64,000 nt of DNA from an uncultured Candidatus Micrarchaeota archaeon (GTDB lineage: Archaea; Micrarchaeota; Micrarchaeia; Anstonellales; Bilamarchaeaceae). This document shows positions 25,892 through 43,222 of the stretch, piece by piece (the stretch's first letter is position 1; every line of letters begins with the position of its first letter). The notes below the pieces were generated by a model, which did no database searches, was not told where the DNA came from, and saw only the letters and a list, made by a program, of their open reading frames with translations. The stretch is from contig OY970229.1 of assembly GCA_963714085.1 (NCBI GenBank), positions 256,001 to 320,000 on the forward strand. Direction: 5' to 3'. The translations under genes were made by a program, and so were the position numbers.

Positions 25892-26908
25892 ATGCTTATG
25901 ACATATGAGTCAACACTAGCCCTGGCTGAGGGTTACCTCAGAAAGCACATCGTGCCAGAGGCGGAGTTCGGCCTCGCGCACACCATAGAGACGGACGACT
26001 GGATGTTCCTGGCGGACCCTCGCGTACCCGACAGGCGCATGCAGCTCACGCTCGCGCATACGGGCTCCTACAACGATTGCCTCTCCATCGCGGAGAGGCT
26101 GTACCTCGACATCAGTTCGCGCAATCCGGAACTGGGACCCGCGATGGCCATGAGCACGGGCGCCGACGTGCACAACTGGGTGCAGATACGCGACCCGGAG
26201 ACCCGCGAGATGGCGCAGATAGACGCCACGCCCTGGTTCGCGCGCCTGAACCCGGGGCACGATGGCGCTGAATGGCAGTACGAGCCGCTGCCGATGCTGG
26301 TCCAGCTGATGATGATCCCATTCAGCGTCAGGAAGACAAGGCACGACAGGTTCATCACCGTGGGGCTGGAGGGGATCCTGCCGAGGTGCAGGGACGCAGC
26401 GGAGAAGGACGGCCCCGCGGCAGGTGAGGACGGGCCGCTATTCAGCTTCATTTTCCAGATCCGGAAGGACCTAGGCTTCGGGACCAAGCCGGAACAGGCG
26501 ATGCACGTCTTCATCGACGTCCTGGATATCGACCGGCTGCACGGATCGCTCAAGTCCAAGGGGTCGATGGACGACCTGATTGCGGCCAGGGCGATAAGGG
26601 CCGGTTTCACCGCCTTCTCGGACGAGGGGACCGCGTTCCTCGCGCTTAGCAGCATGGGGGCCATGCACCAGGCGGCCGGGCAGACGCGGGATACTGAGCT
26701 TTTCGCGGAGTTCGACCGTTCTGTGCCGACCATCTTGAAATTATTGTCCGGCGCGGGCTCGCCGCTTCCCATCGCGGGGAGGCTGGACCAGGAGCTGGAC
26801 GTGGCCAACGGGAGAATCAACGCGAGCGACGGCAGGAAATACCGCGATTTCATCAGATTGCTGGACAGGAAGCTGCAGGAGCCGAGAAAGAGGATACGAA
26901 CGGGATGA
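25892..26908 (+). CDS. Hypothetical protein with possible transglutaminase-like Cys-His-Asp triad
   Basis: NDCLS...VHNWV...QIDATP spacing. Confidence 0.55.
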   Translation: MLMTYESTLALAEGYLRKHIVPEAEFGLAHTIETDDWMFLADPRVPDRRMQLTLAHTGSYNDCLSIAERLYLDISSRNPELGPAMAMSTGADVHNWVQIRDPETREMAQIDATPWFARLNPGHDGAEWQYEPLPMLVQLMMIPFSVRKTRHDRFITVGLEGILPRCRDAAEKDGPAAGEDGPLFSFIFQIRKDLGFGTKPEQAMHVFIDVLDIDRLHGSLKSKGSMDDLIAARAIRAGFTAFSDEGTAFLALSSMGAMHQAAGQTRDTELFAEFDRSVPTILKLLSGAGSPLPIAGRLDQELDVANGRINASDGRKYRDFIRLLDRKLQEPRKRIRTG

Positions 26909-26936
26909 TATCCCTAGCATAAAACCAGATAATAAG

Positions 26937-28610
26937 TGCAGGGGACGAAATCTCCGGGCAGGTCTGACCTTTCCTTAGCGCTGCGATGTCAAATTTGGCA
27001 TCAAGTAAAATATAGCCCATCTGCCGGAGTTAACCGGTTGCTGCCCATATATAGCACGACCTAACAGGAGCTGGCAAAATTAATTCAAAATATTGCTAGG
27101 CAATGATAACTGAGGATTTGAGCATTGATCCTCTCTTATCGTTAATCTTCATCCTGCTAAACTGATACAGAAACCATAAAACTATAATCATTCGATTACG
27201 TTATCGTTCTATATCAGGAAAAGTAATCTACTTCGATTCTGCGAGCTGCTTGACCTGTTCAAGCACTCCTAAATCGAATACTTCTTCAAAAGGAGCATTA
27301 AAGTTGTTCACGCAGAACTTATGCAGCATTTTTCTCGCAATTTCATGTACATGCTCCGGATCGCTTTCAGTCAACATCGGCACAGGACCGAAACCGATTC
27401 CTTGTAATGCCTGGAGTATAAGCGCCTCGGATCCACCGTGTTCGGTGACCTTATTCAGAACACCTGCTGATTCACCTTGAACAGCAACATACATCATTAA
27501 TGCCAACTGATGAAAAGGTCGTTTACCATATGAGAGCTCTGCGCTAAGCGGAAACACTTCCTCACTTATCGCTAGCCTGGACTTCAGCTTAGCATGGATC
27601 AGTTCGTGGAAGATTAGGTCGTAGAGCATATCATGGATCGCTTTTTCTCTGTCATCTTCGGTCTTAAACTTGTTGTTCGCACGTGCATCACGGACGTACA
27701 ACGCAATCGCAAGCAGCATCTTGAGGGCATTCTGCTCTGGAACACCCCCATCCAAAGAGATCCGCCTAGCGAGTGAGAAGTATTCATCGGCAGAAGGCTC
27801 GGCGGGAGTAATGAATGCCTGAATGTCATTAGCATGTTGGTCTAATACGACCTGTGGAATTTGAAATGATTTAGAAAGCATCCCGGTTTTCAGATGTTCT
27901 CTGCCCATTTCATATTGTGCAAATTCACGCAGTTTGTCCTCATAAATCAGAATAACCTTCGCTTCATTGAAAGTTCGCCCTAGGATGCCATCCTTAACCT
28001 CTCCTTCTGTCCTTGACAGGACATAGACGTGAGTATCGCCTACAAGGGAATTCTTTCGTACCGTTCCCACAACTACATCTTCGTCTGGAAAGCTTATCAG
28101 AAGGATTTGATCCTTATCTCGGATAAAATGTTCTCCTTCAGGCCTGGAAGCTAACTTCCCGGCAAGTGATTTTACCGCAGGGTTGAGGGCAAACGAAAGC
28201 TGACGTTCCCAATTATCCAAGGAGGTTTCACTAATACTCAGCTTTTCTTTCCGAAGCCAATCGCTAAATTCTTTCATAGACTCCTCTGAAGTACCCATGC
28301 GCTTTGATCCAAAAACACTACGGCAGTTTGCGGCAGCGATTGCGTAAGGCATCGCAACCAGAGGGATTAGGACCTGACGTCTTGAATAAGTTTGCATATG
28401 TATATAATAATGGCTAAACTTTATAAAACGAATTTATCTTTGCCCTCGACCCTCGCTTTAAAAGCTCTGCTCTCCAGACCGTCTTTCGGTCGGACGGACC
28501 CATTGGCCTGAACTCAGGCCAGATCTGAAAGCGCTAGGGCAGGATTTGAGACCAGCTCTGAGGACACCACCAGGGTAAGACCTCAGAGCAGATCAGAATG
28601 CAGGGGACGA
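26937..28610. mobile_element. Non-autonomous mini-element in tandem with the large element
   Basis: Bounded by TGCAGGGGACGA (tRNA-Leu 3' end) at 26937 and 28599. The left ~95 bp resemble 28599-28700 and the right ~150 bp resemble 48446-48594. One cargo gene, no integrase. Confidence 0.75.
27228..28397 (-). CDS. Putative exported HExxH metallopeptidase-like protein
   Basis: N-terminal SRRQVL (twin-Arg-like), hydrophobic stretch and Cys; FHELIH...SEE; lower GC. Confidence 0.6.
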   Translation of the reverse strand: MQTYSRRQVLIPLVAMPYAIAAANCRSVFGSKRMGTSEESMKEFSDWLRKEKLSISETSLDNWERQLSFALNPAVKSLAGKLASRPEGEHFIRDKDQILLISFPDEDVVVGTVRKNSLVGDTHVYVLSRTEGEVKDGILGRTFNEAKVILIYEDKLREFAQYEMGREHLKTGMLSKSFQIPQVVLDQHANDIQAFITPAEPSADEYFSLARRISLDGGVPEQNALKMLLAIALYVRDARANNKFKTEDDREKAIHDMLYDLIFHELIHAKLKSRLAISEEVFPLSAELSYGKRPFHQLALMMYVAVQGESAGVLNKVTEHGGSEALILQALQGIGFGPVPMLTESDPEHVHEIARKMLHKFCVNNFNAPFEEVFDLGVLEQVKQLAESK

Positions 28611-28611
28611 G
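28519..28611 (+). repeat. 93-bp direct repeat (att arm plus core), copy 1
   Basis: Identical to 48502-48594 except 28530 A vs 48513 C. Confidence 0.95.
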
Positions 28612-28706
28612 TTCCCCGAGCAGGTCTGAGGTCTGAACCGTCTTTAGCGCTCTGATGTCAAATTTGGCATCAGTCATAAAATAGTCCGTCGGCCGGAAGT
28701 GATGGC

Positions 28707-29906
28707 ATGGCGGATATAGATTTGTATAACTACCCGAGAAGGCTGAAAAGTGCGATTGATAAGGCGGATAAAGACGCGAAGGTCTGCCCGGACAACAAGC
28801 GGGACATCGTCTCTTTTTCCAAGATCCGGCTCGCGAAGGGTTCGAGCCACGGGCGGGTCGCCAAGGTAGTCTATTGCATGACGAAGTGGGCGAGATGGCT
28901 GGGAAAACCGTTCAGGGAAGCGACCAAAGACGAGCTTATCATGGCCGTGGGCAGCCTGGAAGACGAGGAGCTGTCCGAGTACACGAAATATGATCTGAAA
29001 ATCGTCCTGAAGATGTTCTACAAGTGGCTGGAAGGCAACGACGAGGTGATGCCCGCCAAGATAATCTGGCTCAAGCCGAAGATAAAGAACGAGAGCCACA
29101 AACTGCCGGAGGAACTGCTTAATGAAGAGGAGATTTTGAAGATAGCCGAGGCTACCGAGAACGTCAGGGATAAGGCGTTCGTGCTTATCCTGTATGAATC
29201 CGGCTGCAGAATAGGGGAATTGCTTACTTTGAGGATGAAAAACATCCAATTTGACCAGTACGGGGCCATCCTAAGGGTAAATGGAAAGACGGGGGACAGA
29301 CGGGTAAGGGTTATTAGCTCGGCCCCAGCCTTGGCTTCGTGGATCGGGCTTCACCCTATGGGAAAAGAGCCTGACGCCATGTTATGGCATTCGACCTGGA
29401 GAAACATCAATAGAGGCCAGAGGAACCTGTGCCATGGAACGGTTTACACCTTGCTTAAGCAGTATGCAGCCAAAGCAGGGATAAAGAAACGGATTTATCC
29501 GCACTTATTCAGGCATTCCAGGGCTACTTCTTTGGCTTGTAAATTGACCGAGGCACAGATGAAAGAGCATTTTGGGTGGGTGCAGGGCTCGGATATGGCA
29601 GCCACATATGTTCATCTTTCCGGGCGGGATGTTGACAATGCTCTTCTGAAATTGCAGGGACTGGTTCAAACTCAAGAGACAAAATCCGAGAAACTCAGTG
29701 TACGAGTATGTCCACGGTGCAAGGATCACAATTCGCCGGTCTCGAAATATTGTACTAAGTGCGGCCTTCCACTGGACGAGAACATGATAGCGAAAATCGA
29801 GGAGATGAAAGGGAAGAGTAATAACCTGATGAACCGGCTGATGGATGACGACGAATTCAAGAATTTCATGGTAAAGAGGATATCAGACCTTGGGCTTAGC
29901 CTTTGA
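28707..29906 (+). CDS. Tyrosine recombinase/integrase with C-terminal Zn ribbon
   Basis: YESGCRIGE (R), NGKTG (K), HLFRHS (HxxR), FGW, TYVH (Y); CPRC...CTKCG. Confidence 0.95.
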   Translation: MADIDLYNYPRRLKSAIDKADKDAKVCPDNKRDIVSFSKIRLAKGSSHGRVAKVVYCMTKWARWLGKPFREATKDELIMAVGSLEDEELSEYTKYDLKIVLKMFYKWLEGNDEVMPAKIIWLKPKIKNESHKLPEELLNEEEILKIAEATENVRDKAFVLILYESGCRIGELLTLRMKNIQFDQYGAILRVNGKTGDRRVRVISSAPALASWIGLHPMGKEPDAMLWHSTWRNINRGQRNLCHGTVYTLLKQYAAKAGIKKRIYPHLFRHSRATSLACKLTEAQMKEHFGWVQGSDMAATYVHLSGRDVDNALLKLQGLVQTQETKSEKLSVRVCPRCKDHNSPVSKYCTKCGLPLDENMIAKIEEMKGKSNNLMNRLMDDDEFKNFMVKRISDLGLSL

Positions 29907-30293
29907 TTTGCTTTCCTCTATGAGTTTATTGAGTTTAACCGCCCAAGCCGGGAGCTGCTTTTCGAGCTCTTTTTGTTCGGAGTCTGACATGATTGAAATC
30001 AGATTGAAGGACTACTTATTGGTTGATGGAAAATTTGATGCTGGGATGTTAAAGGTTCGAATCGTCCGAAAATGGCATATGCTCGGAAATCTGATTTCGG
30101 GTCAGTGCGCCTTACAAGGGAAGGTAACAACCTTTTTCGACCTTCGACACAGGTCGACTAGCGCCTAATGGCGTTAGAGCGTCATGGGCTAATCTTCAAA
30201 TAGGCTGCAGTCTAATATGATAATAGCGAGGAAAGGAACTGGAATCGAACAGCCCAGGAAAAGATAAAAGAATATTGGAAAGCGGACGAAATA

Positions 30294-31130
30294 GTGATTT
30301 ATATGGACCGCATCGATCAAGCATTAGCGAATCAAATACTAGACATGGGAAAGTTAATTCACATGTGGGGAGTTGAGGATGCGAGTTCATCTTTAAACTC
30401 AGCAAAAAGAGATTATTCAGCTAATGATTATAACCACGCAGTCGATTCGATGACTGATTGTAGCGAACGAATAGCCAAAGGCACCATTTTGTTACACCTA
30501 ATAGCTCTAGACCCCAAAAAGTTCAGATTCAATTTGAGACGTAAGAAAGAACTTCTTGATAACTACTCCCATTACCGTTCTCTTATTGAAAAAGGTATCG
30601 GGCACGATACGCCGAAGATTTTTCATGAAATATTGAGCTATTATTCGGAATCTACTGGGACTGTCGATTACCAGGCCTTTCAAGCATTCGAGAAAAATTT
30701 AGGTTGCGATGAAGATGGTATACTGAAAAACTTGGATAAGATTAAATATGACGAAGTCCATGCAGCTGTTACCGCGGCTCTTAACCAAATAAAAACATCA
30801 ACAGAATCCTCAGTTGGTTCAACTGCCGATGCGATGCTCGCAAATTCCGGAATGTTTAATCCGGTTGCAGCATCACTAGGCATCGAGAAAAAAACTGCGT
30901 TAGATACATATGAGAAGCATCACCTACTGGATCTTGATTCCGACGTATTAATACATACGAAAATATTTTCCTACTGGTATAGGAACTCAATCAGATACCG
31001 AGACAATCCCAAAAGAATAGATTTTAACAAAGAAGAATATCGTTGGTTTGTCGATGTGATTCCCGAGAACTTCGCGCTATTTGAAAAGGACATTGCCATA
31101 CTGCGTGGAATCTCTCGTAAAAAGGATTGA
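30294..31130 (+). CDS. Putative HEPN-domain protein, possibly 5'-truncated
   Basis: SAKRDYSANDYNHAV...CSERIAKG and SIRYRD resemble the HEPN helical pattern; frame is open without a start back to 30216. Confidence 0.5.
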   Translation: MIYMDRIDQALANQILDMGKLIHMWGVEDASSSLNSAKRDYSANDYNHAVDSMTDCSERIAKGTILLHLIALDPKKFRFNLRRKKELLDNYSHYRSLIEKGIGHDTPKIFHEILSYYSESTGTVDYQAFQAFEKNLGCDEDGILKNLDKIKYDEVHAAVTAALNQIKTSTESSVGSTADAMLANSGMFNPVAASLGIEKKTALDTYEKHHLLDLDSDVLIHTKIFSYWYRNSIRYRDNPKRIDFNKEEYRWFVDVIPENFALFEKDIAILRGISRKKD

Positions 31131-31134
31131 GAAA

Positions 31135-31875
31135 ATGAATGATGAAACTACCAAGAAACTTCAAGAGATTCGGAACCGGTTCGACAAACTAGAAGAAGCT
31201 GTTAAAATTAAAGACGTCGCTATCAGAAAGATAGTTGATGAAGTTGGCTTAGCTAATGTAAAACCGCGTAGCCTTGCTCACTATCTTCTTCTATGGGGGT
31301 TATTCTCAAAATCCAATGTTATTGATAAAGAGTTGCGGCGTGAGCTTGAAGAAAGTAATCCTTGGCCTTTTTTTATTCTACTCAGGCATCAACTTGAGAT
31401 GTCTGCTACGGTAAATTGGGTACTAAAAAATGAAGATGTTGAAAAAATTGCATTTGGAACAAAACCTTACGATAAAGAAGACAAACGACTTGGAATGCCC
31501 ATAGGGTATCTTTCTAGGCCAGATATCGTGTGGCTTAACATTCCACATATAATGGACTTAATCCGGGAAATGGATAAAGAAATTAGGAAAAAAAGATCTC
31601 CCAATGATATTGAAAAGGATGGTTTTACATCAATTGAAGCAATTTATGGATTATTATCAGATTTATGCCACCCAAACGCCTTCGGACTTCATCTTTTTTT
31701 TAATTCAGCAGCGCGCACACCAAGAAAATTTACTACACACCCAAAATTTGAAGGTGAGCAACTAGATTATTGCACAAAATTTTATATTGAAATCTCAGAA
31801 TTCCTTATAACAGCGTTAGAGCTATACGTTTCTCATATTGAGGAAAAAATTGAAGAACTAGCAAAAAGAGTCTGA
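31135..31875 (+). CDS. Hypothetical helical protein (HEPN-like/DUF5677-like)
   Basis: ILLRHQLE...IYGLLSDLCHPN pattern; AT-rich. Confidence 0.55.
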   Translation: MNDETTKKLQEIRNRFDKLEEAVKIKDVAIRKIVDEVGLANVKPRSLAHYLLLWGLFSKSNVIDKELRRELEESNPWPFFILLRHQLEMSATVNWVLKNEDVEKIAFGTKPYDKEDKRLGMPIGYLSRPDIVWLNIPHIMDLIREMDKEIRKKRSPNDIEKDGFTSIEAIYGLLSDLCHPNAFGLHLFFNSAARTPRKFTTHPKFEGEQLDYCTKFYIEISEFLITALELYVSHIEEKIEELAKRV

Positions 31876-32237
31876 TAAGCATGGTAGGGTACGAGAATCA
31901 TAAGTGGAAGTCGAATCCCTTCGTGATCGACCCGGTGCCGGACAGACACCTCCATAATCGAGGACATCCGCTCTAAGGTGGAGCTTCTTTAGTAATTTGA
32001 TAGAAAATCTGATATTCTAATCTCAAAGGTTCAAATCTCTGGCAGCACATACTTTGCTGCCTGTTGCGCCCTAACCACTACCCTAATTAACTTTGACGCT
32101 CTCTTTTGCATGGGATTGCCTTTTGGGGGGAGTCTGAACCCTAGTAAGCTCAGACGATGATACCCATTGGCATAACTAGCAATTAAGCATTTCTACAGAG
32201 CCATAAAACTTATAATCCTTAGACAAGTAAGGAAATC

Positions 32238-32744
32238 ATGAAGAATACGCTATGCCTCATCCTATGTTTGACGTTGTTGGGTAGTGGTTGCGTATCCAAA
32301 GAGGGCCCCATAACCCAGCCCACAACAGGTTCGAATGAAGTGAATTGTAATAATATCCTCACCCCCGAACTGATAATTGTTATGCTTAACGGCTCCGCCT
32401 CTTGGGTGTATGGCCCGCAAATGCAACCTGGTTTTAAGTTCTCTTCAGAGTTCATGAATAACCCGCCAGTTTGTCACTATGGAAATGCCATGGGGCAGAA
32501 TGTGAATCACCTCTACTGCCAACCCTACGAGCATGGAACGCATATAGTATATGCGAGTGCAGAAAGAACGAATGTGAGCAGTAATGGAACAATCAGCAGC
32601 CATGAATGTTATATTATAAATGTAAATGAGCTTGCACCAGGAGACGAAACGCCTCCCGAATTTCAAGCTGAGCTTAAGATGTACCCGAATGCAATTGCGT
32701 ATCAGGCGTGGGATATAGTCAATGTAACGTGTGAACCGTGCTAA
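32238..32744 (+). CDS. Putative lipoprotein
   Basis: MKNTLCLILCLTLLGSG-C lipobox-like signal. Confidence 0.7.
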   Translation: MKNTLCLILCLTLLGSGCVSKEGPITQPTTGSNEVNCNNILTPELIIVMLNGSASWVYGPQMQPGFKFSSEFMNNPPVCHYGNAMGQNVNHLYCQPYEHGTHIVYASAERTNVSSNGTISSHECYIINVNELAPGDETPPEFQAELKMYPNAIAYQAWDIVNVTCEPC

Positions 32745-32853
32745 ACGAAATAATGCGACCAAAGCGGGCCGCAAATCTGGTTTTGAATGCCGACTGTCAG
32801 ATTAGATTAGTACTAAGAATCAGCGTAAGCTCTGCGCAATTCAAGCTCTGAAA

Positions 32854-33750
32854 TTAAATCTTGAGGTGTGCTCTCAGGGCGGGAACAATTCGGTAATAAC
32901 AGATGAAACAGACACCACCATAGATATAACCGAAGTAGTGAGTGAGTATATCAACAAAACTTCCATTAACGGCTGGATTTGGCGGGAATATTAATAGCGG
33001 CGATGCAAAGAAAAGAAGGACTAGGATTGTCAAAAAAAGATAATTGGCGGGGTTGTCTGTTTTTTCGGATTGTATCTGTTTCAAAATTTCGTGTATTTCA
33101 TTTTTATCGAAGTATATACACCCGATCATAAAAGCAAAAATGATGCATGGATACAGTATATTTTGGTAGTAAGGGAGATAAATGACTGCTAGAAGAAACG
33201 CAGGGTACAAGATAAAAATAAGAAGCACCCCGTCTTTCAATAAATCTTTCCCAATTTTTTTACTTGCAAACAGAACAAGAATGAATAGAGTAAAAGCAAA
33301 AATTCCAGCCTCGATACCGGATAATCCTTGAGAAGTTTGCTCCTTTTGGAAATACCCCGGGGAAACGATTGGTGAGAGGTAAGTGACTAAGAAAAAGGTT
33401 AATGCGAGAATAATTATGAGATATAAGTAATTCCGTTTTTCGTTTATCTTAGTCAGTACCAATAACTGGGGGATGACAAATAAGAAATATGCAATCAGGT
33501 TATTTGAGTAATGGGTAAAATTAGTATGGACAAAGTTTGACGTGAAATATTGCCACCAACTGGGGTTTTTCATTTGAAGGACTAGCAGATCATGGATGTT
33601 CGATGGAACAAACATCAAAAGCGTGGCTATGCATGGCAACGCCAGAATAATTGCTAAATCAATCGGGCTGATAAGACTGAGTGTACCTCGAAGTTCGGTA
33701 AATATGTTTGCGATTTTTTGTATGTTGATTGATAATTTGGGTATTCTCAT
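32854..33750 (-). CDS. Rhomboid-family intramembrane protease-like protein
   Basis: WWQYFTSNFVH..FTHYSNN, QGLSG (GxSG), THYFG; multiple TM helices. Confidence 0.7.
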   Translation of the reverse strand: MRIPKLSINIQKIANIFTELRGTLSLISPIDLAIILALPCIATLLMFVPSNIHDLLVLQMKNPSWWQYFTSNFVHTNFTHYSNNLIAYFLFVIPQLLVLTKINEKRNYLYLIIILALTFFLVTYLSPIVSPGYFQKEQTSQGLSGIEAGIFAFTLFILVLFASKKIGKDLLKDGVLLIFILYPAFLLAVIYLPYYQNILYPCIIFAFMIGCIYFDKNEIHEILKQIQSEKTDNPANYLFLTILVLLFFASPLLIFPPNPAVNGSFVDILTHYFGYIYGGVCFICYYRIVPALRAHLKI

Positions 33751-33818
33751 AGCGGTACCCTGTTATAAGGCATGATTGGTGATGTAAAACTTTAAATTAA
33801 TGCCTGCGATTTGAGAAT

Positions 33819-33953
33819 TCATTCAGAGTTGTACCTATCCTTCAAAAACAGATACGCTAACCCTAATATAACGCCTGCCCCGGCAACAGCAAACAAACTT
33901 ACCCCCATAACCAACGCGATTGAAAGCGCGCTGGATAAAATATCCATATTCAT
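33819..33953 (-). CDS. 44-aa single-pass membrane peptide
   Basis: Manual translation MNMDILSSALSIALVMGVSLFAVAGAGVILGLAYLFLKDRYNSE; GAGGT upstream of the ATG. Confidence 0.5.
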   Translation of the reverse strand: MNMDILSSALSIALVMGVSLFAVAGAGVILGLAYLFLKDRYNSE

Positions 33954-34036
33954 GACCTCGTTTATTTACTACTTGTTTTTTCAGTCTATTTAAATGTGTG
34001 TTAACACGTAGACATCCAAGACTGAAGAGACGGCCG

Positions 34037-34071
34037 AGACTGCGAATCTCTCGTAGAGATTCGTAGTCTGA
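34037..34071. repeat. 15-bp imperfect inverted repeat site
   Basis: AGACTGCGAATCTCT-CGT-AGAGATTCGTAGTCT(GA); degenerate copies at 34896-34961. Confidence 0.8.
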
Positions 34072-34165
34072 GCTTTGACTACATGCCCCATATTCAGATT
34101 ATTATTCCATTCAGAATATCTTTAACAGTAATATTAATATAATCGGAATATCATACGGGTATATT

Positions 34166-34897
34166 ATGGTCATGGAACGCAAGGGCTCCCGACGGCACCA
34201 AAAAACCGGATTCCTCGGATTGTTCAGGAAGAAGCTGAAGAACAAAAAACAATGGAAAGCGGATTGCGACTGGAAGGTCAGCGGAGAGAAGGACGGCATT
34301 GTTTATTACGCGGTGATAGACTTCCGTTTAAAAGAAAAAAGCGGATTGCTTTTCGATGAGAACGGGGTGGCTTACCATAAGGCCAGGTTCGAGGCGGACA
34401 CGGGCTTTGACGCGATCGATGGCGAGGATCACAGGACTTTCGATAGGGAACTTGTAGGGAATACCTGCTTGGCGAGCGGAATGATGAACCGATGCAGCCA
34501 ACTGCTGGAAGACACCTATACGGTCATGCCAAAGAAAGGCGCGAAAACCTGGAGGGAGTTTCTCGTATATTTCAACAGAAATAAGAGAAGGATTTGCGAT
34601 GAGGTGAACGAGATAGTGTCCGAGGCCGAGTACGCCGGTGATGTTTACGGTAAGAAAAAGCAGAGCAAAGACAAGATAATCAATGAGATTGCAAGGAAAA
34701 CCTTTGAACCGATAGAACCCTCAACGCTGGACCGATTTGATGTCTTCAAGGCGTGGTATACCGAAAAACTGAGGGGTCTGGATTATGCGAATATGGCCAA
34801 CAGAGTGGAATGGAAAGAAGAAGGGAAGATACGGGCGCTGGTAGTACGGGAATTAGAGGAACATGGATTTGTGAGAACAAAAGAAGAAAAACGATGA
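34166..34897 (+). CDS. Hypothetical protein flanked by palindromic sites
   Basis: 243-aa ORF, basic N-terminus, higher GC than neighbouring cargo. Confidence 0.7.
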   Translation: MVMERKGSRRHQKTGFLGLFRKKLKNKKQWKADCDWKVSGEKDGIVYYAVIDFRLKEKSGLLFDENGVAYHKARFEADTGFDAIDGEDHRTFDRELVGNTCLASGMMNRCSQLLEDTYTVMPKKGAKTWREFLVYFNRNKRRICDEVNEIVSEAEYAGDVYGKKKQSKDKIINEIARKTFEPIEPSTLDRFDVFKAWYTEKLRGLDYANMANRVEWKEEGKIRALVVRELEEHGFVRTKEEKR

Positions 34898-34961
34898 ATC
34901 GGGATTTCTTGCCGAGATTCGCAATCTGATTGCGAAACTTTATCAGAGATTCACAGTCTGA
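34896..34961. repeat. Two tandem degenerate copies of the 34037 palindromic site
   Basis: ...CGAGATTCGCAATCTGA and GATTGCGAAACTTT-ATC-AGAGATTCACAGTCTGA, with a 32-bp period. Confidence 0.7.
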
Positions 34962-34976
34962 TTATGGATCCCTAGA

Positions 34977-35801
34977 TTAATTTTCAAAGACTTCGAACTC
35001 TTGCATATACCACCAATGAGTTCCATCTGTTTGATCTGCGGTAATTCGCAGGTATCTGGCATCAACTGAAGTGAAATTGTATTGAATTGGAACTTGTGGG
35101 GGACTCGAAGTTTCAGTTACTAACCTAGTCCAGTTATTACCGTCAAATGAATAATCAATATGCCACTTGACCGGGAAGTCAGACCATGAAGCGCCAGGAT
35201 TTGCGTATATCACAATTCTTCCAACGTTTGTTTGCGAACCGAGATCAACCTCCCACCAATTACCTGCATAATTAGCAGTGTTGGTTGCAAAACGATGCGC
35301 ATCCGTGTAAGTTGTAATATCGCCGTCTAGTGCCCCTTCCGCAGTTTGACTGTTTATGCTAGCTGTTGCGGTCTTACCTAACGCAAGATTAGTTCCTTGT
35401 GTTGTTATATCTGTACTTCGATTATACGAAATGCCTTGCTCTGTTTGAGACGTGGATATATTTGTTTCGTTATTCTGTTCTGAATTAATATTCGAAGAGC
35501 TACTAGCTTGTGTTTGGGCTGTTGGACAATCTCCACATTTGCTACATCTATATGATTGAATCCTCTTTTGTAAGGCTGGACTACCCCCACCGTATTCAAG
35601 TAAATCACAAACTTCTTGGCAATGGTCCTGATTTAGACCCGAGTCAGTCCGATTAACCATGCATAGAGCAACACAATAACTATTATCACTGTCGAGTATC
35701 CCTCTTCCAGGGCAATTTAAGCCAGTTTTCGAAGAGCTACCAGTGCATCCAAAAACTAAAAACAAACTTACCAAAATAAAAATAATGCAGATTTTATTCA
35801 T
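34977..35801 (-). CDS. Lipoprotein with C-terminal discoidin (F5/8 type C) domain
   Basis: LVFG-C signal; NLALGKTATAS..ALDGD..WWEVDLG..ARYLRI..EFEVF. Confidence 0.85.
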   Translation of the reverse strand: MNKICIIFILVSLFLVFGCTGSSSKTGLNCPGRGILDSDNSYCVALCMVNRTDSGLNQDHCQEVCDLLEYGGGSPALQKRIQSYRCSKCGDCPTAQTQASSSSNINSEQNNETNISTSQTEQGISYNRSTDITTQGTNLALGKTATASINSQTAEGALDGDITTYTDAHRFATNTANYAGNWWEVDLGSQTNVGRIVIYANPGASWSDFPVKWHIDYSFDGNNWTRLVTETSSPPQVPIQYNFTSVDARYLRITADQTDGTHWWYMQEFEVFEN

Positions 35802-36012
35802 ACGTTCTCCCTCAATAAATGATAATGCTCGGTTGTTTAAATATTTGCGTAGTCGACCTGTAGTAAGAGCTAACTCTGATTTTACGAATTTGACGCTTAA
35901 TTCCCTTGTATTTCCCTATAATTTCCCTAATCCCACGTCTGAGAGCTTTTTAACATGGAAATATCCACTGTCTCATTCAAGAATTTTATAACACCTAAAA
36001 TCCAACTATATC

Positions 36013-36216
36013 ATGGCTGACCCGTCTGTGATCGTGGATAAACTGCTCAATTACCTTTCAAAAGAACCGGCCTCAACCCACCAGATCGTATGCGCTACGA
36101 AGCTGCACAACCAAACCGTTAAGAAATACCTCCGGATAATCGAGGATGTCCAGAATTCGCCGAAGTTGAAGAAAGAAGTGCGCGGAATACGGGTATTTTT
36201 CAGAAAAGACGTTTAA
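36013..36216 (+). CDS. Small winged-HTH protein
   Basis: STHQIVCATKLHNQTVKKYL helix-turn-helix plus beta wing. Confidence 0.7.
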   Translation: MADPSVIVDKLLNYLSKEPASTHQIVCATKLHNQTVKKYLRIIEDVQNSPKLKKEVRGIRVFFRKDV

Positions 36217-36385
36217 GTCATTTTTGGTGAAAAATAACATATTTTCAGGTAAAATATGTGAAAACACACATAGATTTTGCTCCCATTATATCGCTATAGC
36301 ACTTCAAAACGTAGTTTTCAAGAAACATTTATAAACATTTTCATACACAATAGATATTAGGGTAAAATGATCGAAAGGTCATGGG

Positions 36386-37468
36386 ATGGGTTTCCAACCA
36401 ATCGCAACGGAGGTTTCCAGCAAAAACCGGATACTCCTAGATGAATTGGCCCTTACGTCCAGGTTCTCTAATAAAAACAGCCTTGGTTGCCGCCAGTTGG
36501 CCGGAGAACGCGTCCTGGAAGCGATAAAACGGCTTCCTGAGGGTCATCCGTCCGAGAACCTATTCATCTGCGGTCCTTCGGGTTCGGGCAAAACCGCCCT
36601 GGTCAGGTGGGCTGTGGACAAAATGGAACAAACTCAAAGGATATTATGTATATACTCCAACTGCCACAGATACAACACCTCGATGTCCATATTTACCAGG
36701 ATTGCGGATGCTTTGGGCGAACCGGTTTCAAGAAGGGGGCGGGCAGTCGATGAGATATTCGACCATATTGTAAAGCTCATGCGCTACTCAAAGAAGCCCG
36801 TCCTTCTCGTTCTTGATGATATTGAAGCGCTTGTCCAGTACGATGGCGCCCGGATACTCCAGAATATCGCGCATTTGGAGGAAGAAAACGTCCATTTCGC
36901 CATTATCGGGATATCCGATAACGAAACCGCGCTTTCGAAGCTTCCGCAAGAAACCCGCGAAGTACTAAGGTTCACAAAAGTAGAGATTCCCCAGTTCACT
37001 CGCGAGGAGCTGCTGGCCCTTCTTAAGGAACGTGCATCCATGGGTTTGCGGCCTGGTTCTTACGACAGTTCGCTGATAGAAGCAATAGCGGGCATAAGCG
37101 AGGCGGTCAATGGAGGAGGTCGTTTCGCTCTTGAAATCTTATGGAGGGCTGCGAGAAGTTCGGAGGAACGGGGACTTGACTCGATACCCCAGCAGGAACT
37201 GGAACGCATAAAGGACAGCTTAGGGCTCCAAGAACGGGAGTTATCCCAGGGCGAGCTTGAAATAGTCAGATTGCTCAAGGACGGCCCTAAAACATCCTCG
37301 ATGCTTTACGCATTGTTCTGGAGGAAAATATCGAAATCCCAGCGGCAGATACGCAACTACATTCATTCCATGGAAGAAAAGGGCATTGTCGAGACCCGAT
37401 TTGTGCGAGGCAAGTACAACTACGGCTCAACGATCATACAACTTAGCGGAGGCTGGGAGCATGACTAA
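36386..37468 (+). CDS. cdc6: Orc1/Cdc6-family replication initiator
   Basis: NLFICGPSGSGKT, YSNC, LVLDDIE, ELLALLKERA, C-terminal wHTH. Confidence 0.88.
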   Translation: MGFQPIATEVSSKNRILLDELALTSRFSNKNSLGCRQLAGERVLEAIKRLPEGHPSENLFICGPSGSGKTALVRWAVDKMEQTQRILCIYSNCHRYNTSMSIFTRIADALGEPVSRRGRAVDEIFDHIVKLMRYSKKPVLLVLDDIEALVQYDGARILQNIAHLEEENVHFAIIGISDNETALSKLPQETREVLRFTKVEIPQFTREELLALLKERASMGLRPGSYDSSLIEAIAGISEAVNGGGRFALEILWRAARSSEERGLDSIPQQELERIKDSLGLQERELSQGELEIVRLLKDGPKTSSMLYALFWRKISKSQRQIRNYIHSMEEKGIVETRFVRGKYNYGSTIIQLSGGWEHD

Positions 37469-37640
37469 CGGGTTAATGATATCGAAAACGAGAGTTAAGA
37501 TGTTTCTCAAGAAGCAGGATATGCGAGTTTCGGAGAATTTTTACCGGGCTTTGGATGATGAGATTCAAGCTATCCTTTTGAAAGTGACAAAGCGAGCCAA
37601 GAGCGATAAACGCACAACCGTTCTTGCGCGTGATGTTTAG
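37461..37640 (+). CDS. Small histone-fold protein (59 aa)
   Basis: MTNGLMISKTRVKMFLKKQDMRVSENFYRALDDEIQAILLKVTKRAKSDKRTTVLARDV: MRVS loop, long helix 2, RTTV..RD signature, short helix 3; overlaps the cdc6 stop. Confidence 0.85.
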   Translation: MTNGLMISKTRVKMFLKKQDMRVSENFYRALDDEIQAILLKVTKRAKSDKRTTVLARDV

Positions 37641-37779
37641 CACAAATAACCGACGATATTTATAGCAATTGCGAATTCAATTGTTCTAAGCCTTAAAACG
37701 CTTGAATCCAGCCGCTGGTGGGCCTGTTTTTTCGCCTTTCCGACAATTGCAAATCGCAATTGTTCATACGATTTGGGCG

Positions 37780-40035
37780 TCAATTCGCTTGAATTCGCTC
37801 AGAAACTCGTGCGGAATTATTGAATAATCTATCGAGGGTTTCTTTAATTTCAGTTCGAAGTATGACGTTGCCGTAAGGATCATAAGTTGATTTAAGCTCA
37901 CGGTTCGTCACCAAAATATAGTAAGTTTTGAACTCGGCTTTAACCTTATCGAATTTCTGTTTCAATGTTTTTTCCTCATCGTGTGAACCTGTTTCAACTT
38001 CAAACGCTATGTTCTCCTTGTCAAAAACAACCACGTCCGGCTTGACGGTATCATAGAGTAACGCGTTCTTTCCGTACTTCTCAATCTCCATCTGCAGTAT
38101 CCTGCAAAAATAGTAATGCTCCGGCCCCTGATTGGTTGGGGGCTTGACGAGCGTTTTTTGTCCTTTGCCCGGGCCAAACGGATTCGTGTCCAATTCAACA
38201 TAGCCGTGTTCCCTGCACATCCTGGCCTGCTCCTCGGTCAGATCCTTGACGAAGAAAAAACCCTCCCTGAGATTGAACCGCTTGGGTGGCCGTTGCACCG
38301 GCCTGTCTACGGTCTCGATTTTCCCGCTCGTTTGCTTCGGATCGGTGGTGAACAGGTTGTGCATGATCTCCGGTACCGTTATCTGGAACTTGAAATTCCC
38401 CTCCTCGCTTAACAGCAGGCCACTCCCCTTGTTGCATTTTATCAGGTAATCCCTTTCCTCTGCGTTCAGCTTCAGCGAGGCGCTAATAGCCTCTATGTTG
38501 CTGGTGCTCTGCTTCATCAGGATTTTCGTGGCCGACAGGTTGAGTATAGATTTTCCCGCGTCCGCCTTGTCGAAGTCCTCTATCTCCTGGGTTATGAATC
38601 CGAGCCCGACCCCGTATTTTCTCGCCGCCTTGATGTATTCAAGGACGTAATCCTCGGCGTTCTTGCTGCGCAGCAGCCCCCAGCCCTCGTCTATGAAGAT
38701 GAATTTCGGGGCCTTGTCCGCCTTCATCCTGCGCGAAACGAAGCCGAGGATGATGAACATGGCCAGGGGTTTAAGCGGCATCGGGATTTTACTCAAATCG
38801 AAGTTCACGATCCTGGCCTTCAGTTCCACGTTGGTGCGCCGGTCAAGGAAAGCGAAGAACCCGTTTTTGGAGTACATCGAAAGCCTGTTGACCAGAACCT
38901 CCAGCGTCCGGATATCTCTCGACCCCTTTTTCCTCTCCTTGTACATCTTCACGCTTTCGTCGTAAACGTCCGAGAACGTGGGCGGCTCGTTCTTCCAGGT
39001 CTTCTCTTCGAGCGGCAATATTCCGGATTCCTCGTAAGCCCTCGGAAGCAGCCGGTTGAGCGCTCCCTTCTGCGATTCCGTGAGGCCGCCGACTATTATG
39101 TCAAAGGCGGCTATCAGTTCCAGCATTTTTGCCTGGAAGCTCTGGTCGCCCAAATCGAACAGGTTGATGCTGTCCTCGGAATCCTGCGCTATCTGGACGT
39201 TCTGCCCTCCCAGCGACGCCACTGTTCCCGCATATTCGGCGTTCGGGTCTATGATGAATATGTCCGCTCCGGCATTGAAGAGGATCTGGACTATGAGGGA
39301 TTTGGCTGTGTAGCTCTTGCCCGAGCCGCTGGTTCCAAGGATGAAGAAGTGCTTGTTGCTGTACTTGTCAAAGTCCAGGTGTATCCTGTTGAGGGTTTCC
39401 AGCTCGTTCCCAAGGAAAACCCCCACCTTATCGGGTTTTGCCGGAGATATGAACGGGAATGTGGCCGCCAGGGAGTTGGTGGGGAATTCCTGCTGCACTC
39501 CCAGCTTGTCAGTGCCCAATGGGAGGCAGGAGCGCAGCGCCGGGGCCATCCGGAAATTGGCTGTTTTCGGTATGATCATTATGGCGTTCATGTTGGCCTT
39601 GCATTTTTCGGTCAACAGGTCGAGCTTGTCCAGGGAACTCTCCTTGTTGTTCACGTACAGCGACACGCGGAACAGCTTCTCCTCGCCCTTGTACAAGAGC
39701 TCGTGCAGATGCCGGGTGTCCGACAGCTTGATCTCCAGCGCCGGATTGGGCGTGCCTTTCTCCGTGCTCATGAACAGGTCTGCGGTCTGCTTGTTGATCT
39801 GGTCGTAGAGGAATATTATCGTCTGGTCTATGCTTGAGGGCTCGATGTGCAGGGAAATGTCGTAATTCTCGTTCTTGGACAGGAACGACCTGAGCCAGCC
39901 ATCATCTATTTTACGCGGGTACCCCACCGCTTCGATGACGCGGTAATAATATTCGTTCACCTTCGCATAATCCTTGCGGACCTCCATGTACGAGGGCATT
40001 ATGAGGCAAGTGAGAAGCTCGTCGTCGTTTATCAT
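37780..40035 (-). CDS. virB4: VirB4/TraC-family ATPase with C-terminal PD-(D/E)xK-like domain
   Basis: NKHFFILGTSGSGKS, IIDPNAEY, INLFD, FIDEGW, ARKYG..ITQ; C-terminal KPDVVV..IAFEVETG. Confidence 0.88.
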   Translation of the reverse strand: MINDDELLTCLIMPSYMEVRKDYAKVNEYYYRVIEAVGYPRKIDDGWLRSFLSKNENYDISLHIEPSSIDQTIIFLYDQINKQTADLFMSTEKGTPNPALEIKLSDTRHLHELLYKGEEKLFRVSLYVNNKESSLDKLDLLTEKCKANMNAIMIIPKTANFRMAPALRSCLPLGTDKLGVQQEFPTNSLAATFPFISPAKPDKVGVFLGNELETLNRIHLDFDKYSNKHFFILGTSGSGKSYTAKSLIVQILFNAGADIFIIDPNAEYAGTVASLGGQNVQIAQDSEDSINLFDLGDQSFQAKMLELIAAFDIIVGGLTESQKGALNRLLPRAYEESGILPLEEKTWKNEPPTFSDVYDESVKMYKERKKGSRDIRTLEVLVNRLSMYSKNGFFAFLDRRTNVELKARIVNFDLSKIPMPLKPLAMFIILGFVSRRMKADKAPKFIFIDEGWGLLRSKNAEDYVLEYIKAARKYGVGLGFITQEIEDFDKADAGKSILNLSATKILMKQSTSNIEAISASLKLNAEERDYLIKCNKGSGLLLSEEGNFKFQITVPEIMHNLFTTDPKQTSGKIETVDRPVQRPPKRFNLREGFFFVKDLTEEQARMCREHGYVELDTNPFGPGKGQKTLVKPPTNQGPEHYYFCRILQMEIEKYGKNALLYDTVKPDVVVFDKENIAFEVETGSHDEEKTLKQKFDKVKAEFKTYYILVTNRELKSTYDPYGNVILRTEIKETLDRLFNNSARVSERIQAN

Positions 40036-40902
40036 TCAGCGCACCTCCTTATCCGTGTTGAACGAATCATAGATCGTTATCCTGGAAAGATAGTCGTCGC
40101 CTATCTCGACATAGCCCTCGAAATACGACATGAGCAGCGATATGAGCTGGTTGTTCGTCAATCGTATGGCAACGAGCCCGCAGTAGCCCAGCCGTTCCTG
40201 TATCAACTCGGCCCGAAGATTCAGCTCCTTTACCTGGTCGTCCTCCTTGATTCGCCTGGTCATTGTGCGCTTATTTTCCAATGGGACTACGACGTAGTAG
40301 ATGCGCTCCTTTATGGCATGGCTTTCTATGAATTCGGTTTCGTATTTCCGGAATTCCTCGTATAGTTTCTTGAGGTTTTTAGCCCCGGACTTTTCTATGC
40401 GGGAATACTGGGCTGAATAATCCGGCTTCACGGAATTGACTGTGCGGACGATTATCTGTATCGGGAACGTGAGCTGGTTGAGGAATTCCCTGTAATTGAG
40501 GATCAGGGAGCGCTTTCTGGAATCGTCCATCAGCTCGAAGTTCACCGGCTTCACCAATACCACGGCGCGGAGCTCGCCGTTTTTCAGGAACATGGCGTTT
40601 CTTTCGATTTTTTTGACTTCTATGAACCCCTTCACCTTGGCGTCTAGGTACCCGCCAAGCCGTATGTCGGTCATGAACCCCAGCCAGGTCAGCAACTTGG
40701 TTTCTAAGTCGAAAATGGCGAAGCATACGCCAATCAACACGAATATCGATACCAGTGCGATTCTGGCTTCCTCAGGCAACGGCAAGCGATACGCCAAAGC
40801 AGCGATGACGAGGAACAATACGATGTACCCGAATTGCTTCAAGTCGAGATTGAGGAATATTTTCTCCTTGTATCTGATTGTGTCAGGTATGTCGTAACCC
40901 AT
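40036..40902 (-). CDS. PrgI/VirB3-like membrane protein fused to a TrsD-like domain
   Basis: YDIPDTIRYKEKIFLNLDLKQFGY plus 2 TM helices; PVNFELM..FLNQLTFPIQI. Confidence 0.8.
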   Translation of the reverse strand: MGYDIPDTIRYKEKIFLNLDLKQFGYIVLFLVIAALAYRLPLPEEARIALVSIFVLIGVCFAIFDLETKLLTWLGFMTDIRLGGYLDAKVKGFIEVKKIERNAMFLKNGELRAVVLVKPVNFELMDDSRKRSLILNYREFLNQLTFPIQIIVRTVNSVKPDYSAQYSRIEKSGAKNLKKLYEEFRKYETEFIESHAIKERIYYVVVPLENKRTMTRRIKEDDQVKELNLRAELIQERLGYCGLVAIRLTNNQLISLLMSYFEGYVEIGDDYLSRITIYDSFNTDKEVR

Positions 40903-40906
40903 AGTA

Positions 40907-41860
40907 TCACAGGAATGCAAGCAGCATGGCAACCTTCCAGCCTATTGATACAGCCGCGTTCAGGACGCGTAAAACGACCGGTACGAGCGAAAACACCGCC
41001 AATAGGTAGATCAACACGTTCACGAGCCCGATAAGCCCAAAACCAAGCATCAGGGCTATTCCCTGCACGAATCCACCGGCCAATACCGGATCCCCTGAAT
41101 TGAACAGGTATGTTAATGCGAGGATAAGCACTGCGTCAATGCTCGTCATGAAGATGATTATTACGATGAATTTCAGCATGAACAGGCCCCATTCCCTTGT
41201 GAACGGGATGAAATAGAGGAAAATCGCTATGGGAAACAGCAAAAGCAAGAAGGGAATCATCAAATAACGAATTATCAGGGTGAAGAACGTCAGGGCCGCA
41301 GCTGACAGGAAATTGAATGAAAGCACCATGGCGAACACAAGCGAGGAGAAAACGACCTGTATGCTCAGGAGATTGGCGAATGACGAATCGTATATTGACG
41401 TAGTTATGTACTGATTCAACTCGACAATCATCTTGAAGATGCTGAAGGAAAACGCGAGGGCGATAATGAGATATAGGACATTCTGGATCCAGAGTTTCGC
41501 CTTCGCACGTTTTTCAACATCCGCTGCCGTAGCGATATAATACGCACCAACCCCCATGAGCGCAAGGGTGTAAAGGCTCTCAAGAATGCTCATGATCTTC
41601 GCGTATGGAGTGCAGAAAAGGTCCAGATTAGGCCCGGTCACAATGAAAATCAACGAGTTATCGAGAAATTCCTTTGCCGAATATACGAATCCACTAACCA
41701 GGGAAGAGAAAAACTTCTCAACTATGCAGGTCGGCAGGTTGAAGATGACCTGAAGAAAGTTGGCATTATCCGGGCAGGATTGGTTAGTTATACTCACGTC
41801 AATGGAAGCGGAGTAAACGATTGAACTAATTACCAGCAATAAAACCAGGTACTTAAGCAA
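40907..41860 (-). CDS. VirB6/TrbL-like polytopic membrane protein
   Basis: Multiple TM helices, IIRYLMIPFLLLLFPIAIFLYFIP.T..W pattern, position in the tra operon. Confidence 0.7.
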   Translation of the reverse strand: MLKYLVLLLVISSIVYSASIDVSITNQSCPDNANFLQVIFNLPTCIVEKFFSSLVSGFVYSAKEFLDNSLIFIVTGPNLDLFCTPYAKIMSILESLYTLALMGVGAYYIATAADVEKRAKAKLWIQNVLYLIIALAFSFSIFKMIVELNQYITTSIYDSSFANLLSIQVVFSSLVFAMVLSFNFLSAAALTFFTLIIRYLMIPFLLLLFPIAIFLYFIPFTREWGLFMLKFIVIIIFMTSIDAVLILALTYLFNSGDPVLAGGFVQGIALMLGFGLIGLVNVLIYLLAVFSLVPVVLRVLNAAVSIGWKVAMLLAFL

Positions 41861-43010: not shown

Positions 43011-43221
43011 AATAATGACCTCCGGAGAACATGGAGCCGATTAAAGGGGCAAGATAGACGATGCAGAGGCCGATGATCACGCCCAGGATTACGTCTTTCC
43101 ACTGCTTTCGGAATATCGGATCCTGGCTGATGGTCAGCATAAGGCCGGAATACGCAATCATCACGATCCCGGCGACTGTGGCTAATAGCTTGATGCTGTC
43201 CGCTATGGCCTCAAGGGTCAA
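43003..43221 (-). CDS. TrbC/VirB2-like pilin
   Basis: Two hydrophobic helices separated by a charged loop (..IAYSG...KQWKDVILGVIIGL..LAP). Confidence 0.7.
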   Translation of the reverse strand: MTLEAIADSIKLLATVAGIVMIAYSGLMLTISQDPIFRKQWKDVILGVIIGLCIVYLAPLIGSMFSGGHYCG

Positions 43222-43222
43222 G

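Follow-up and report, generated by a model that had tools for sequence, protein, structure and literature searches.

The window examined here is a 64,000-nt stretch of DNA (positions 256,001 to 320,000 of contig OY970229.1, assembly GCA_963714085.1) from an uncultured Candidatus Micrarchaeota archaeon, whose genome (G000) is a single contig of 1.57 Mb with a 57% GC content. It carries a low-GC integrative element of conjugative type, approximately 20 kb in length, at a tRNA-Leu gene. The subject of this report is the cargo region of this element, and in particular the short motif TCTGA/TCAGA (TCWGA) that recurs in the spacers between the cargo genes. To our knowledge, the mobile elements of DPANN archaea have barely been described, and a full-text literature search turned up no paper on integrative elements of Micrarchaeota.

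Direct repeats of 113 nt (28499-28611 and 48482-48594) bound the element; their inner 93 nt are 99% identical (left copy compared with 48502-48594). The left repeat contains four copies of TCWGA and the final 13 nt of tRNA-Leu; the right repeat overlaps the final 13 nt of tRNA-Leu(GAG) (48582-48665, the two together spanning 48482-48665 on the reverse strand). As for other element integrases, the attachment (att) site is the 3′ end of a tRNA gene. The enzyme (28707-29906, forward strand) is a tyrosine integrase (Pfam PF00589, 2.5e-20) with a C-terminal zinc ribbon, for which the matches are weak; the domains are assigned by Pfam, and the att site makes it a tRNA-targeting element integrase. 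It has relatives in 103 of 301 sampled genomes of the phylum (E <= 1e-30). Pfam also identifies six larger cargo open reading frames (ORFs), a 67-aa winged-helix (wHTH) protein, an Orc1/Cdc6-type ATPase, a VirB4/TraG-like ATPase, a PrgI-like protein, two type IV secretion system (T4SS) pilins, and three proteins of DNA modification (an N6/N4 methylase, Vsr, and a C5 methylase). Flanked by att repeats at a tRNA gene, with genes for an integrase, a VirB4/TraG-like ATPase, and two T4SS pilins, the element has the makeup of an integrative conjugative element (ICE). An Rfam search of 26500-49000 at a permissive threshold matched the tRNA alone.

The cargo slot is the interval between the integrase gene and the conserved wHTH gene (36013-36216, forward strand), which is the first backbone gene past the slot and has an HTH_5 match (7e-4) below the Pfam cut-off. 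This gene was found in seven of the relatives examined. The slot is 6.1 kb long here, 329-414 nt in four relatives (L033, L034, L035, and L045), 860 nt in L041, 4.0 kb in G109 (locus L031), and 9.2 kb in L037. G109 is the closest relative, with an integrase that is 82% identical and backbone DNA that is about 77% identical. None of the present cargo proteins recurs in the seven compared relatives. Since the slot varies in size among relatives that share no cargo proteins with it, this stretch is a variable cargo hot spot of the element; as in the variable regions of ICEs, conserved flanking genes enclose inserts that are unrelated from one relative to the next.

The six cargo ORFs are complete. 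Two overlap (30294-31130 and 31081-31875, forward strand), and the second of these has a weak DUF5677 match. They are followed by a forward ORF (32238-32744; 168 aa) whose N-terminus is lipoprotein-like and which matches no family, a reverse-strand ORF with a rhomboid domain (32854-33750; PF01694, 1.2e-6), a forward orphan gene of 243 aa (34166-34897) with a GC content of 48%, compared with 37-40% in its neighbours, and a reverse-strand ORF encoding a secreted F5/8 type C (discoidin) domain protein (34977-35801; PF22633, 1.1e-16, and PF00754, 1.3e-15). TATA-like sequences were recognized by eye upstream of most of them. A sequence-only reading of this DNA had described the cargo genes as unrelated and mixed in orientation, and the Pfam assignments and strands agree with that description. 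PADLOC returned no match for the six cargo proteins, two unassigned proteins adjacent to the methylase genes, or the protein of an adjoining satellite cassette. A possible further ORF of 44 codons, encoding a single-pass membrane protein, was noticed by eye upstream of the rhomboid gene (33822-33955, reverse strand).

The same reading had listed 17 copies of TCTGA/TCAGA in the cargo spacers, proposed that these are enriched, and interpreted them as possible traces of gene capture by the integrase. All 17 coordinates are exact matches, and an 18th copy is present at 33823, where it may lie at the end of the 33822-33955 ORF. In six spacers defined by hand (29907-30293, 31876-32237, 32745-32853, 33751-34165, 34898-34976, and 35802-36012; 1,563 nt in all), there are 17 copies, whereas the cargo coding sequence (4,543 nt) contains nine. 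When the spacers are shuffled with dinucleotides preserved (n = 2,000), the mean is 4.05 copies (sd 1.91), giving a z-score of 6.8 for the observed number. None of the other 512 strand-collapsed 5-mers is as enriched in the cargo spacers as TCTGA/TCAGA, whose score exceeds the largest z obtained for any 5-mer over 500 shuffles (6.15). The excess is real.

This enrichment is confined to the cargo block. In 102,526 nt of host intergenic DNA (delimited by crude ORF calling, with expectations from a maximal-order Markov model), 163 copies are observed where 162.1 are expected, a rank of 267 among the 512 5-mers, so the host spacers are not equally enriched. Motif density is 10.9 per kb in the cargo spacers and 0.4-2.6 per kb in the host, depending on GC class. 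The backbone spacers of the same element contain one copy against 1.9 expected. Across the whole host genome TCWGA is in fact depleted (1,363 observed compared with 1,852 expected; ratio 0.74), which makes it the most depleted interrupted-palindrome 5-mer and the 11th most depleted of all 512. Restriction-type avoidance was considered and rejected: the rank is only 11 of 512, and no depletion is seen in host intergenic DNA or in the element backbone. The ratios for two other palindromes in the host genome are 0.65 (GATC) and 0.47 (CTAG).

A genome-wide scan in 2 kb windows identified three hot spots for the motif: this element, an att-like remnant at approximately 487 kb, and an integrase element at a tRNA-Glu gene. 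The last of these, outside the window, occupies genome positions 1308139-1314240 and beyond, encodes an integrase that is 62% identical to the present one, and has an att repeat at approximately 1314196-1314240; a spacer repeat of about 70 nt (TAAATAG...ACCTCAGAACCGCCCTCAGTGGAAGG) occurs in it three times, at 1312525, 1314105, and 1315055.

Relatives of the element do not share the enrichment. Spacers up to 8 kb downstream of the integrase at 29 metagenome loci, two pairs of which look duplicated, contain 62 copies against 54.6 expected. Under the same crude ORF calling, observed/expected ratios for cargo and other spacers are 0.6-1.3 in seven of nine genome relatives. In the two exceptions (L038 and L040), the motif copies sit in genuine att repeats: the TCWGA-rich spacers there are the att repeats between stacked small elements.

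TCWGA is also abundant at the att site of the present element, where seven copies fall within about 130 nt. In addition to the four in the left repeat, TCTGA is found at 28625, 28632, and 28651 in the integrase-proximal arm (28612-28706, forward strand), in which a TCTGAggTCTGA pair is kept in G109 and in one copy from the same genus. Among 25 non-identical regions upstream of related integrase genes, 16 copies fall at -71 to -105, adjoining the tRNA-derived core, and none lies between -15 and -70; by our own reading of the list, this position beside the core is kept in about 12 of the 25. When att copies of several genomes are aligned, TCWGA sits in conserved blocks and in a covarying stem, and the family att copies read GNTCTGAG. 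TCWGA is thus a conserved feature of the att arm of this integrase family, and its description as an att-arm motif is justified. As a family signature beside the tRNA-derived core, GNTCTGAG could help to delimit such elements in metagenomes.

Two further observations concern the att repeat. A hairpin 3′ of tRNA-Leu (28545-28595; GCTCTGAGG...CCTCAGAGC) keeps its pairing despite altered letters in the inner stem, as judged from copies of the same genus (L059, L060, L062, L063, and L064). The repeat is also present at several contig ends in G413 and G414, two genomes of the same genus in which only the att repeat and the host flank were matched and no cargo was found.

The cargo copies of the motif differ in their flanks from the att copies. 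They read A[A/G]TCTGA[T/A], with A at base -2 in 14 of 18 copies and G in one, compared with G in 26 of 31 att copies and A in two (Fisher's exact test: p = 4e-7 for A and 6e-8 for G). The information at base -2 is 0.75 bit, above the 99.9th percentile of the null, and the bias toward A extends to single copies outside the duplicated elements described below. The extended form A[AG]TCTGA occurs ten times in the 1,563 nt of cargo spacers, against a mean of 0.58 and a maximum of 4 in 3,000 shuffles, and five times in 25.7 kb of spacers from relatives. AGTCTGA accounts for five copies, all on the forward strand and at unit boundaries (29981, 31869, 32131, 34065, and 34955); the whole genome contains 44 on both strands. 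Judged by these flanks, the putative cargo sites are not degenerate copies of the att-arm sites, as the gene-capture proposal had required of the cargo junctions. In 24 local alignments of spacers with attL or attR, scored against shuffles, two stood out: the first is a promoter box shared by spacer 1 (z 3.4) and the second is a weak 24-nt match (z 4.2).

The copies are arranged in pairs more often than expected. Three inverted pairs of the form TCTGA-N11/12/13-TCAGA (starting at 29983, 32133, and 34925) bear out the pairing noted earlier; under random placement, the mean is 0.135 (P = 0.00015). One copy does supply a cargo stop codon, as had been stated: the TGA of AGTCTGA at 31873-31875 ends the ORF at 31081-31875. 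Among the copies in 29800-36100, a motif TGA ends an ORF judged to be real only at 31871 and at 29883 (reverse strand). With respect to start codons, the motif centre lies 70-76 nt upstream of five of nine (those of the integrase, rhomboid, 34166, F5/8, and wHTH genes), a placement with a scan-corrected P of 0.009. The copy at 35938-35942 (forward strand), 75 nt 5′ of the wHTH start, is found in the same place in the cargo-free loci L033, L034, and L035 and is absent in L031, L041, and L045. A host-wide upstream element at -50/-73 was rejected as an explanation: the histogram shows small bumps, and 14 listed host promoters share no motif.

The spacers themselves are heterogeneous. Spacer 1 contains the start of a small antisense ORF of 35 codons (29884-29991, reverse strand; recognized by eye), which is antisense to the 3′ end of the integrase gene, ends in the TGA of the motif copy at 29883, and has TCWGA at 29983 and 29999 in its start region. 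An 11-nt inverted repeat (29995-30005 and 30088-30098) surrounds the promoter box of this ORF (box C, 30009-30053, leftward) and has TCWGA in both arms. G109 and at least five metagenome relatives share the conserved region 29934-30053, which comprises the antisense ORF start and promoter box. It is one of four pieces of DNA homology to G109, together with the integrase, 34946-34971, and the region upstream of the wHTH gene from 35910.

The promoter-like box occurs in four copies of approximately 30-45 nt, at 26975-27003, 28644-28687, 30009-30053 (reverse strand), and 44360-44404 (reverse strand). Each is a GATGTCAAATTTGGCATC-type palindrome followed by a TATA-like ATAAAATAG. Three end about 28-32 nt 5′ of starts (those of the integrase, the small antisense ORF, and the methylase/T4SS operon), with the palindromic box at 28644-28687 ending approximately 30 nt 5′ of the integrase ATG; the fourth sits in the adjoining satellite cassette. 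These copies suggest that one regulator may act on both the integration and the transfer genes. Relatives have palindromes of their own at the same spot upstream of the integrase gene.

In spacer 2, a mosaic, a gene remnant and a conserved non-coding piece lie together. The remnant (31877-31968, forward strand) is the truncated 5′ end of a P-loop ATPase gene, with 78-79% DNA identity to the starts of full-length genes in G282 (L049 and L053), where the full-length gene adjoins an AIPR/AbiU-like gene; this remnant is a mark of untidy deletion, not of cassette exchange. The non-coding piece (32122-32206, forward strand) includes the hairpin GTCTGA-N12-TCAGAC at 32132-32155 and is also present in two other Micrarchaeota genomes, in one of them in a housekeeping context; a 22-mer from it was found in two other records among the genome contigs searched.

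Spacers 4 and 5 contain two palindromic elements of approximately 40 nt, PE-L and PE-R, which jointly hold four copies of AGAGATTCryAGTCT, one of them inverted. PE-L (34037-34071) has a perfect 15-bp stem with a 3-nt loop, its right arm ending in AGTCTGA. It lies in a divergent promoter region and has a predicted folding energy of -22.9 kcal/mol (z -5.0), which none of 200 shuffles equalled. PE-R (34913-34971) comprises two direct GAGATTCnnAnTCTGA copies and a degenerate inverted copy (fold z -2.45). The possibility that the CTGA of the motif serves as box D of a C/D box small RNA was also examined. In such RNAs, box D (CUGA) is preceded at a distance of 30-80 nt by a box C (RUGAUGA), and there are internal D′ and C′ boxes as well; a scan of 29800-36400 gave eight loose candidates, none with proper internal boxes in a spacer, and this explanation was rejected.

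PE-L and PE-R bracket the orphan gene at 34166-34897, and the direct 16-nt repeats that flank it are identical at 14 of 16 positions. G109 has a single copy of this motif-containing core, whose left flank resembles that of PE-L and whose right flank equals that of PE-R at nine of ten positions. A 26-nt island centred on the motif (34946-34971) matches G109 (L031, 5417-5442) at 25 of 26 positions amid unrelated flanks, and among 99 genomes of the family this 26-mer is present, with up to three mismatches allowed, in G000 and G109 only. The gene thus represents a gene-sized gain or loss bounded by a motif-containing repeat. A search with its protein as the query gave no homologue in 400 sampled genomes of the phylum; the protein has no recognizable fold or family and no confident look-alike (atlas scores of at most 0.86), and does not match the neighbouring 223-aa protein of G109.

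Several explanations of the motif excess were weighed. We rank palindromic sites first, a mixture without common function next, and integrase capture third, with an element of the repetitive extragenic palindromic (REP) type and methylation as minor candidates. The excess is a set of short self-complementary sites with the core TC-W-GA and an A two bases upstream, and three types can be distinguished: AATCWGATT, GTCWGAC, and the approximately 40-nt palindromic element that is present twice. Our tentative preference, held at well under even confidence, is that these are block-specific palindromic sites for protein binding, or hairpin sites, at gene boundaries. Under this proposal the sites, which lie at the boundaries of genes that would have been acquired independently, would be sequence-specific targets of a DNA-binding protein, and some could also fold as hairpins; they would punctuate and regulate transcription of this cargo block. 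Candidate binders are the conserved 67-aa wHTH protein and the orphan protein of 34166-34897, whose gene lies between the strongest palindromes. In favour of the proposal are the extended consensus, the inverted pairs, the placement 70-76 nt upstream of five starts and the position of the wHTH copy in three relatives, the folding of PE-L and PE-R, the 26-nt island shared with G109, and the confinement of the enrichment to this block. Identification of a binding protein would reveal the means by which an archaeal element controls or insulates genes that it has newly acquired.

A number of observations weigh against this proposal. Both candidate binders are weak, the wHTH match being below the Pfam threshold and the orphan protein belonging to no recognizable family. 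The 70-76 nt placement was spotted post hoc among nine starts, some of them set by eye, and the cargo of G109, also read by eye, does not show it. Five of the 17 copies (32797, 32847, 34925, 34943, and 34957) lie in 3′-to-3′ spacers, where no promoter is expected. The contexts are mixed, ranging from a single stop codon and a single start region to the stems of hairpins and the loop of one. The copies at 34067, 34925, 34943, and 34957 belong to the two copies of one duplicated palindromic element, so that fewer than 17 independent events are represented. Finally, in the relative where the conserved non-coding piece has a housekeeping context (G066), the GTCTGA/TCAGAC stem of the conserved non-coding piece reads ATCTA...TAGAT, through two compensatory changes (identified by eye from alignment A2, in a single relative). 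Because pairing is kept while the TCWGA letters have changed, this comparison favours structure over sequence recognition as the probable constraint on the 32132-32155 pair.

The second explanation is that the copies have no common function, and that the excess is the sum of a duplicated palindrome, a promoter inverted repeat, a hairpin, a stop codon, gene relics, and chance; TCWGA would recur because it is self-complementary and fits easily into palindromes. The heterogeneous contexts agree with this view, as do the four copies contributed by PE-L and PE-R, the two contributed by the 11-nt inverted repeat, the covariation of the G066 hairpin away from TCWGA, and the restriction of the enrichment to this one element. 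It accounts poorly, however, for the fact that TCWGA alone stands out, with no other interrupted palindrome enriched, for the A bias at base -2 in single copies outside the duplicated elements, and for the non-random placement relative to start codons (P = 0.009), and it would make a coincidence of the top 5-mer also being the att hallmark. We consider it somewhat unlikely. Whichever of these accounts is adopted, the cargo-spacer motif is a local, unexplained set of cis elements.

The third explanation is that of the sequence-only reading: an integron- or shufflon-like array, in which TCWGA marks secondary (pseudo-att) sites where the integrase inserts, excises, or inverts cassettes. Parts of this claim are upheld, namely the local enrichment, the core shared with the att arm (the same 5-mer core is the att-arm hallmark and the top 5-mer in the cargo spacers), the hot spot, which starts directly after the integrase gene and ranges from 329 nt to 9.2 kb among relatives, and one repeat-bounded indel. 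The five AGTCTGA copies at unit boundaries, all in one orientation, and the gene at 34166-34897, which lies between direct 16-nt repeats where G109 has one copy with flanks like both junctions, are also in its favour. The cassette model is otherwise mostly unsupported. The flanks differ sharply from those of att sites at base -2, the alignments of spacers with att sites yielded little beyond the shared promoter box, and neither the 29 metagenome relatives nor seven of the nine genome relatives are enriched. As for breakpoints, the 34166-34897 indel does fall at a motif repeat, but deletion between direct repeats explains it as well as site-directed insertion would, and only two of the seven sequences compared have TCWGA within about 10 nt of the left cargo boundary. 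The truncated gene remnant in spacer 2 is a further point against capture.

Inversions and excisions, which the array model predicts, were not seen: in one public read run, contigs at a depth of 2-5 showed no strand-switch or excision joints, indels, or variants in 26900-46899, a depth at which rare rearrangements could be missed. Three loose ends in these contigs, at 28500, 28511, and 28611, are other copies of the att repeat. The cassettes of an integron are for the most part single ORFs without promoters, all oriented alike, and each ends in an imperfect attC palindrome with conserved core sites. Here the ORFs lie on both strands, mostly with TATA-like sequences upstream (by eye), and comparable palindromes occur at only two junctions (PE-L and PE-R), the others sharing a 5-7-nt core. 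For a shufflon, no conserved repeat of the 19-bp type extends across the junctions, and the cargo ORFs are complete and unrelated. We therefore regard capture of this kind as improbable. Because the motif differs from its docking-site version and relatives lack it, an integron-like gene-capture machine is not supported, and the claim should not be carried forward.

In its broadest form, the capture reading would have a DPANN integrase use TC-W-GA-cored sites both at its tRNA att site and at secondary sites in the slot just downstream of its gene, where it would capture and shed single genes, as an independent archaeal integron-like platform. The gene at 34166-34897, with its 16-nt direct repeats and unoccupied site in the closest relative, would be an example caught in the act. 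This would be the first integron-like system in archaea if true, and we think it more doubtful still. The way cargo changes in the slot resembles the replacement and deletion that are usual at a hot spot, together with one indel of gene size that is bounded by a repeat.

A fourth explanation, that the copies are remnants of a small mobile palindrome resembling REP sequences or miniature inverted-repeat transposable elements (MITEs) that seeded the intergenic regions of this block, is very unlikely. PE-L, PE-R, and the G109 copy are indeed intergenic palindromes of approximately 35-40 nt that occur whatever the orientation of their neighbours, and the 26-nt island is conserved amid non-homologous flanks. 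Against this, the 16-nt core has nine matches in G000 when one mismatch is allowed, of which only the three beside 34166-34897 are copies of the palindromic element and the other six are scattered single sites with one mismatch; the 26-mer is limited to two of the 99 family genomes; no transposase of the Y1/RAYT type turned up, although none was searched for; and the resident TnpB element (six copies) has unrelated ends and no TCAGA target. An IS200/IS605-type target or end was rejected as a source of the motif on the same grounds, the flanks of the TnpB copies being unrelated. This TnpB-only element of the IS200/IS605 type is found at 7449-8777 and five other sites, with 82-90% protein identity among the six copies; two more distant copies and two short fragments are present besides. 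Least probable of all is that TCWGA is the target of a methyltransferase of the element (43515-44339 or 46043-47065) and that its clustered copies serve in epigenetic control. Palindromes like TCWGA are among the sequences that methyltransferases recognize, TCWGA is depleted in the host, and the element has genes for an N6/N4 methylase, which relatives conserve in their backbone, and for a C5 methylase accompanied by Vsr, but TCSGA is not co-enriched, relatives with the same methylase show no spacer enrichment, several non-palindromic 5-mers are equally depleted in the host, and the PDB and NCBIfam matches of the enzymes are generic, their specificity not being readable from sequence.

The relatives also bear on the plan of the element as a whole. 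In closer metagenome relatives, whose integrases are 80-90% identical, conservation of the module stops at about 30055-30085; the DNA beyond is unrelated and in some of them includes none of the present backbone genes. In L069 and L072, a module of integrase, small ORF, and promoter box that is 80-82% identical is followed by 4-10 kb with no match to wHTH, Orc1, or T4SS proteins. The integrase module appears to have been joined to different element bodies. The present element is clearly modular in plan, with an integrase module, a variable slot, and a backbone for replication and transfer. A second insertion point is located between the integrase stop and the small antisense ORF (29894 to 29934), where L031, L070, L071, L073, and L120 have 300-950 bases of extra DNA; in G109 this DNA is an HNH-domain gene.

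The region can be compared with several known systems. Switches of the R64 shufflon and fimS type are resembled by the inverted TCWGA repeats, and especially by the 11-nt pair that flanks an 82-nt promoter segment by a tyrosine recombinase gene; unlike these systems, the present region lacks both alternative gene ends and multiple 19-bp conserved sites, its segment is very short, and no inverted form was seen in the low-depth contigs. The att copies of TCWGA (GNTCTGAG) resemble arm or accessory-factor sites of the lambda type in being repeated beside the tRNA-derived core, whereas the cargo copies (A[A/G]TCTGA[T/A]) do not fit this pattern. Satellite cassettes of the cis-mobilizable element (CIME) type and tandem accretion have a counterpart in the one-gene unit with both att arms that is stacked beside the element, as well as in the att repeats of L038 and L040; the cargo spacers differ in lacking att similarity, save for the promoter box and one weak match, and in the flank of the motif.

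Integron arrays with attC sites also have an integrase beside unrelated genes and a short motif recurring at boundaries, and imperfect palindromes enclose one gene here, for which a relative has a single-copy, "empty" counterpart. The likeness ends with genes that lie on both strands and have TATA-like sequences of their own, most junctions that share no attC-like structure, a motif that differs from its own att version and is absent in relatives, and an integrase that targets a tRNA gene. ICE hot spots such as those of SXT/R391 are similar in having a slot of unrelated genes, variable in number, between conserved landmarks. The present element differs in its archaeal host, in the location of the slot directly after the integrase gene, and in the 7-mer that is strongly over-represented in its spacers; its backbone of integrase, wHTH protein, Orc1/Cdc6, VirB4-like ATPase, pilins, and methylase is nonetheless that of an element of this kind.

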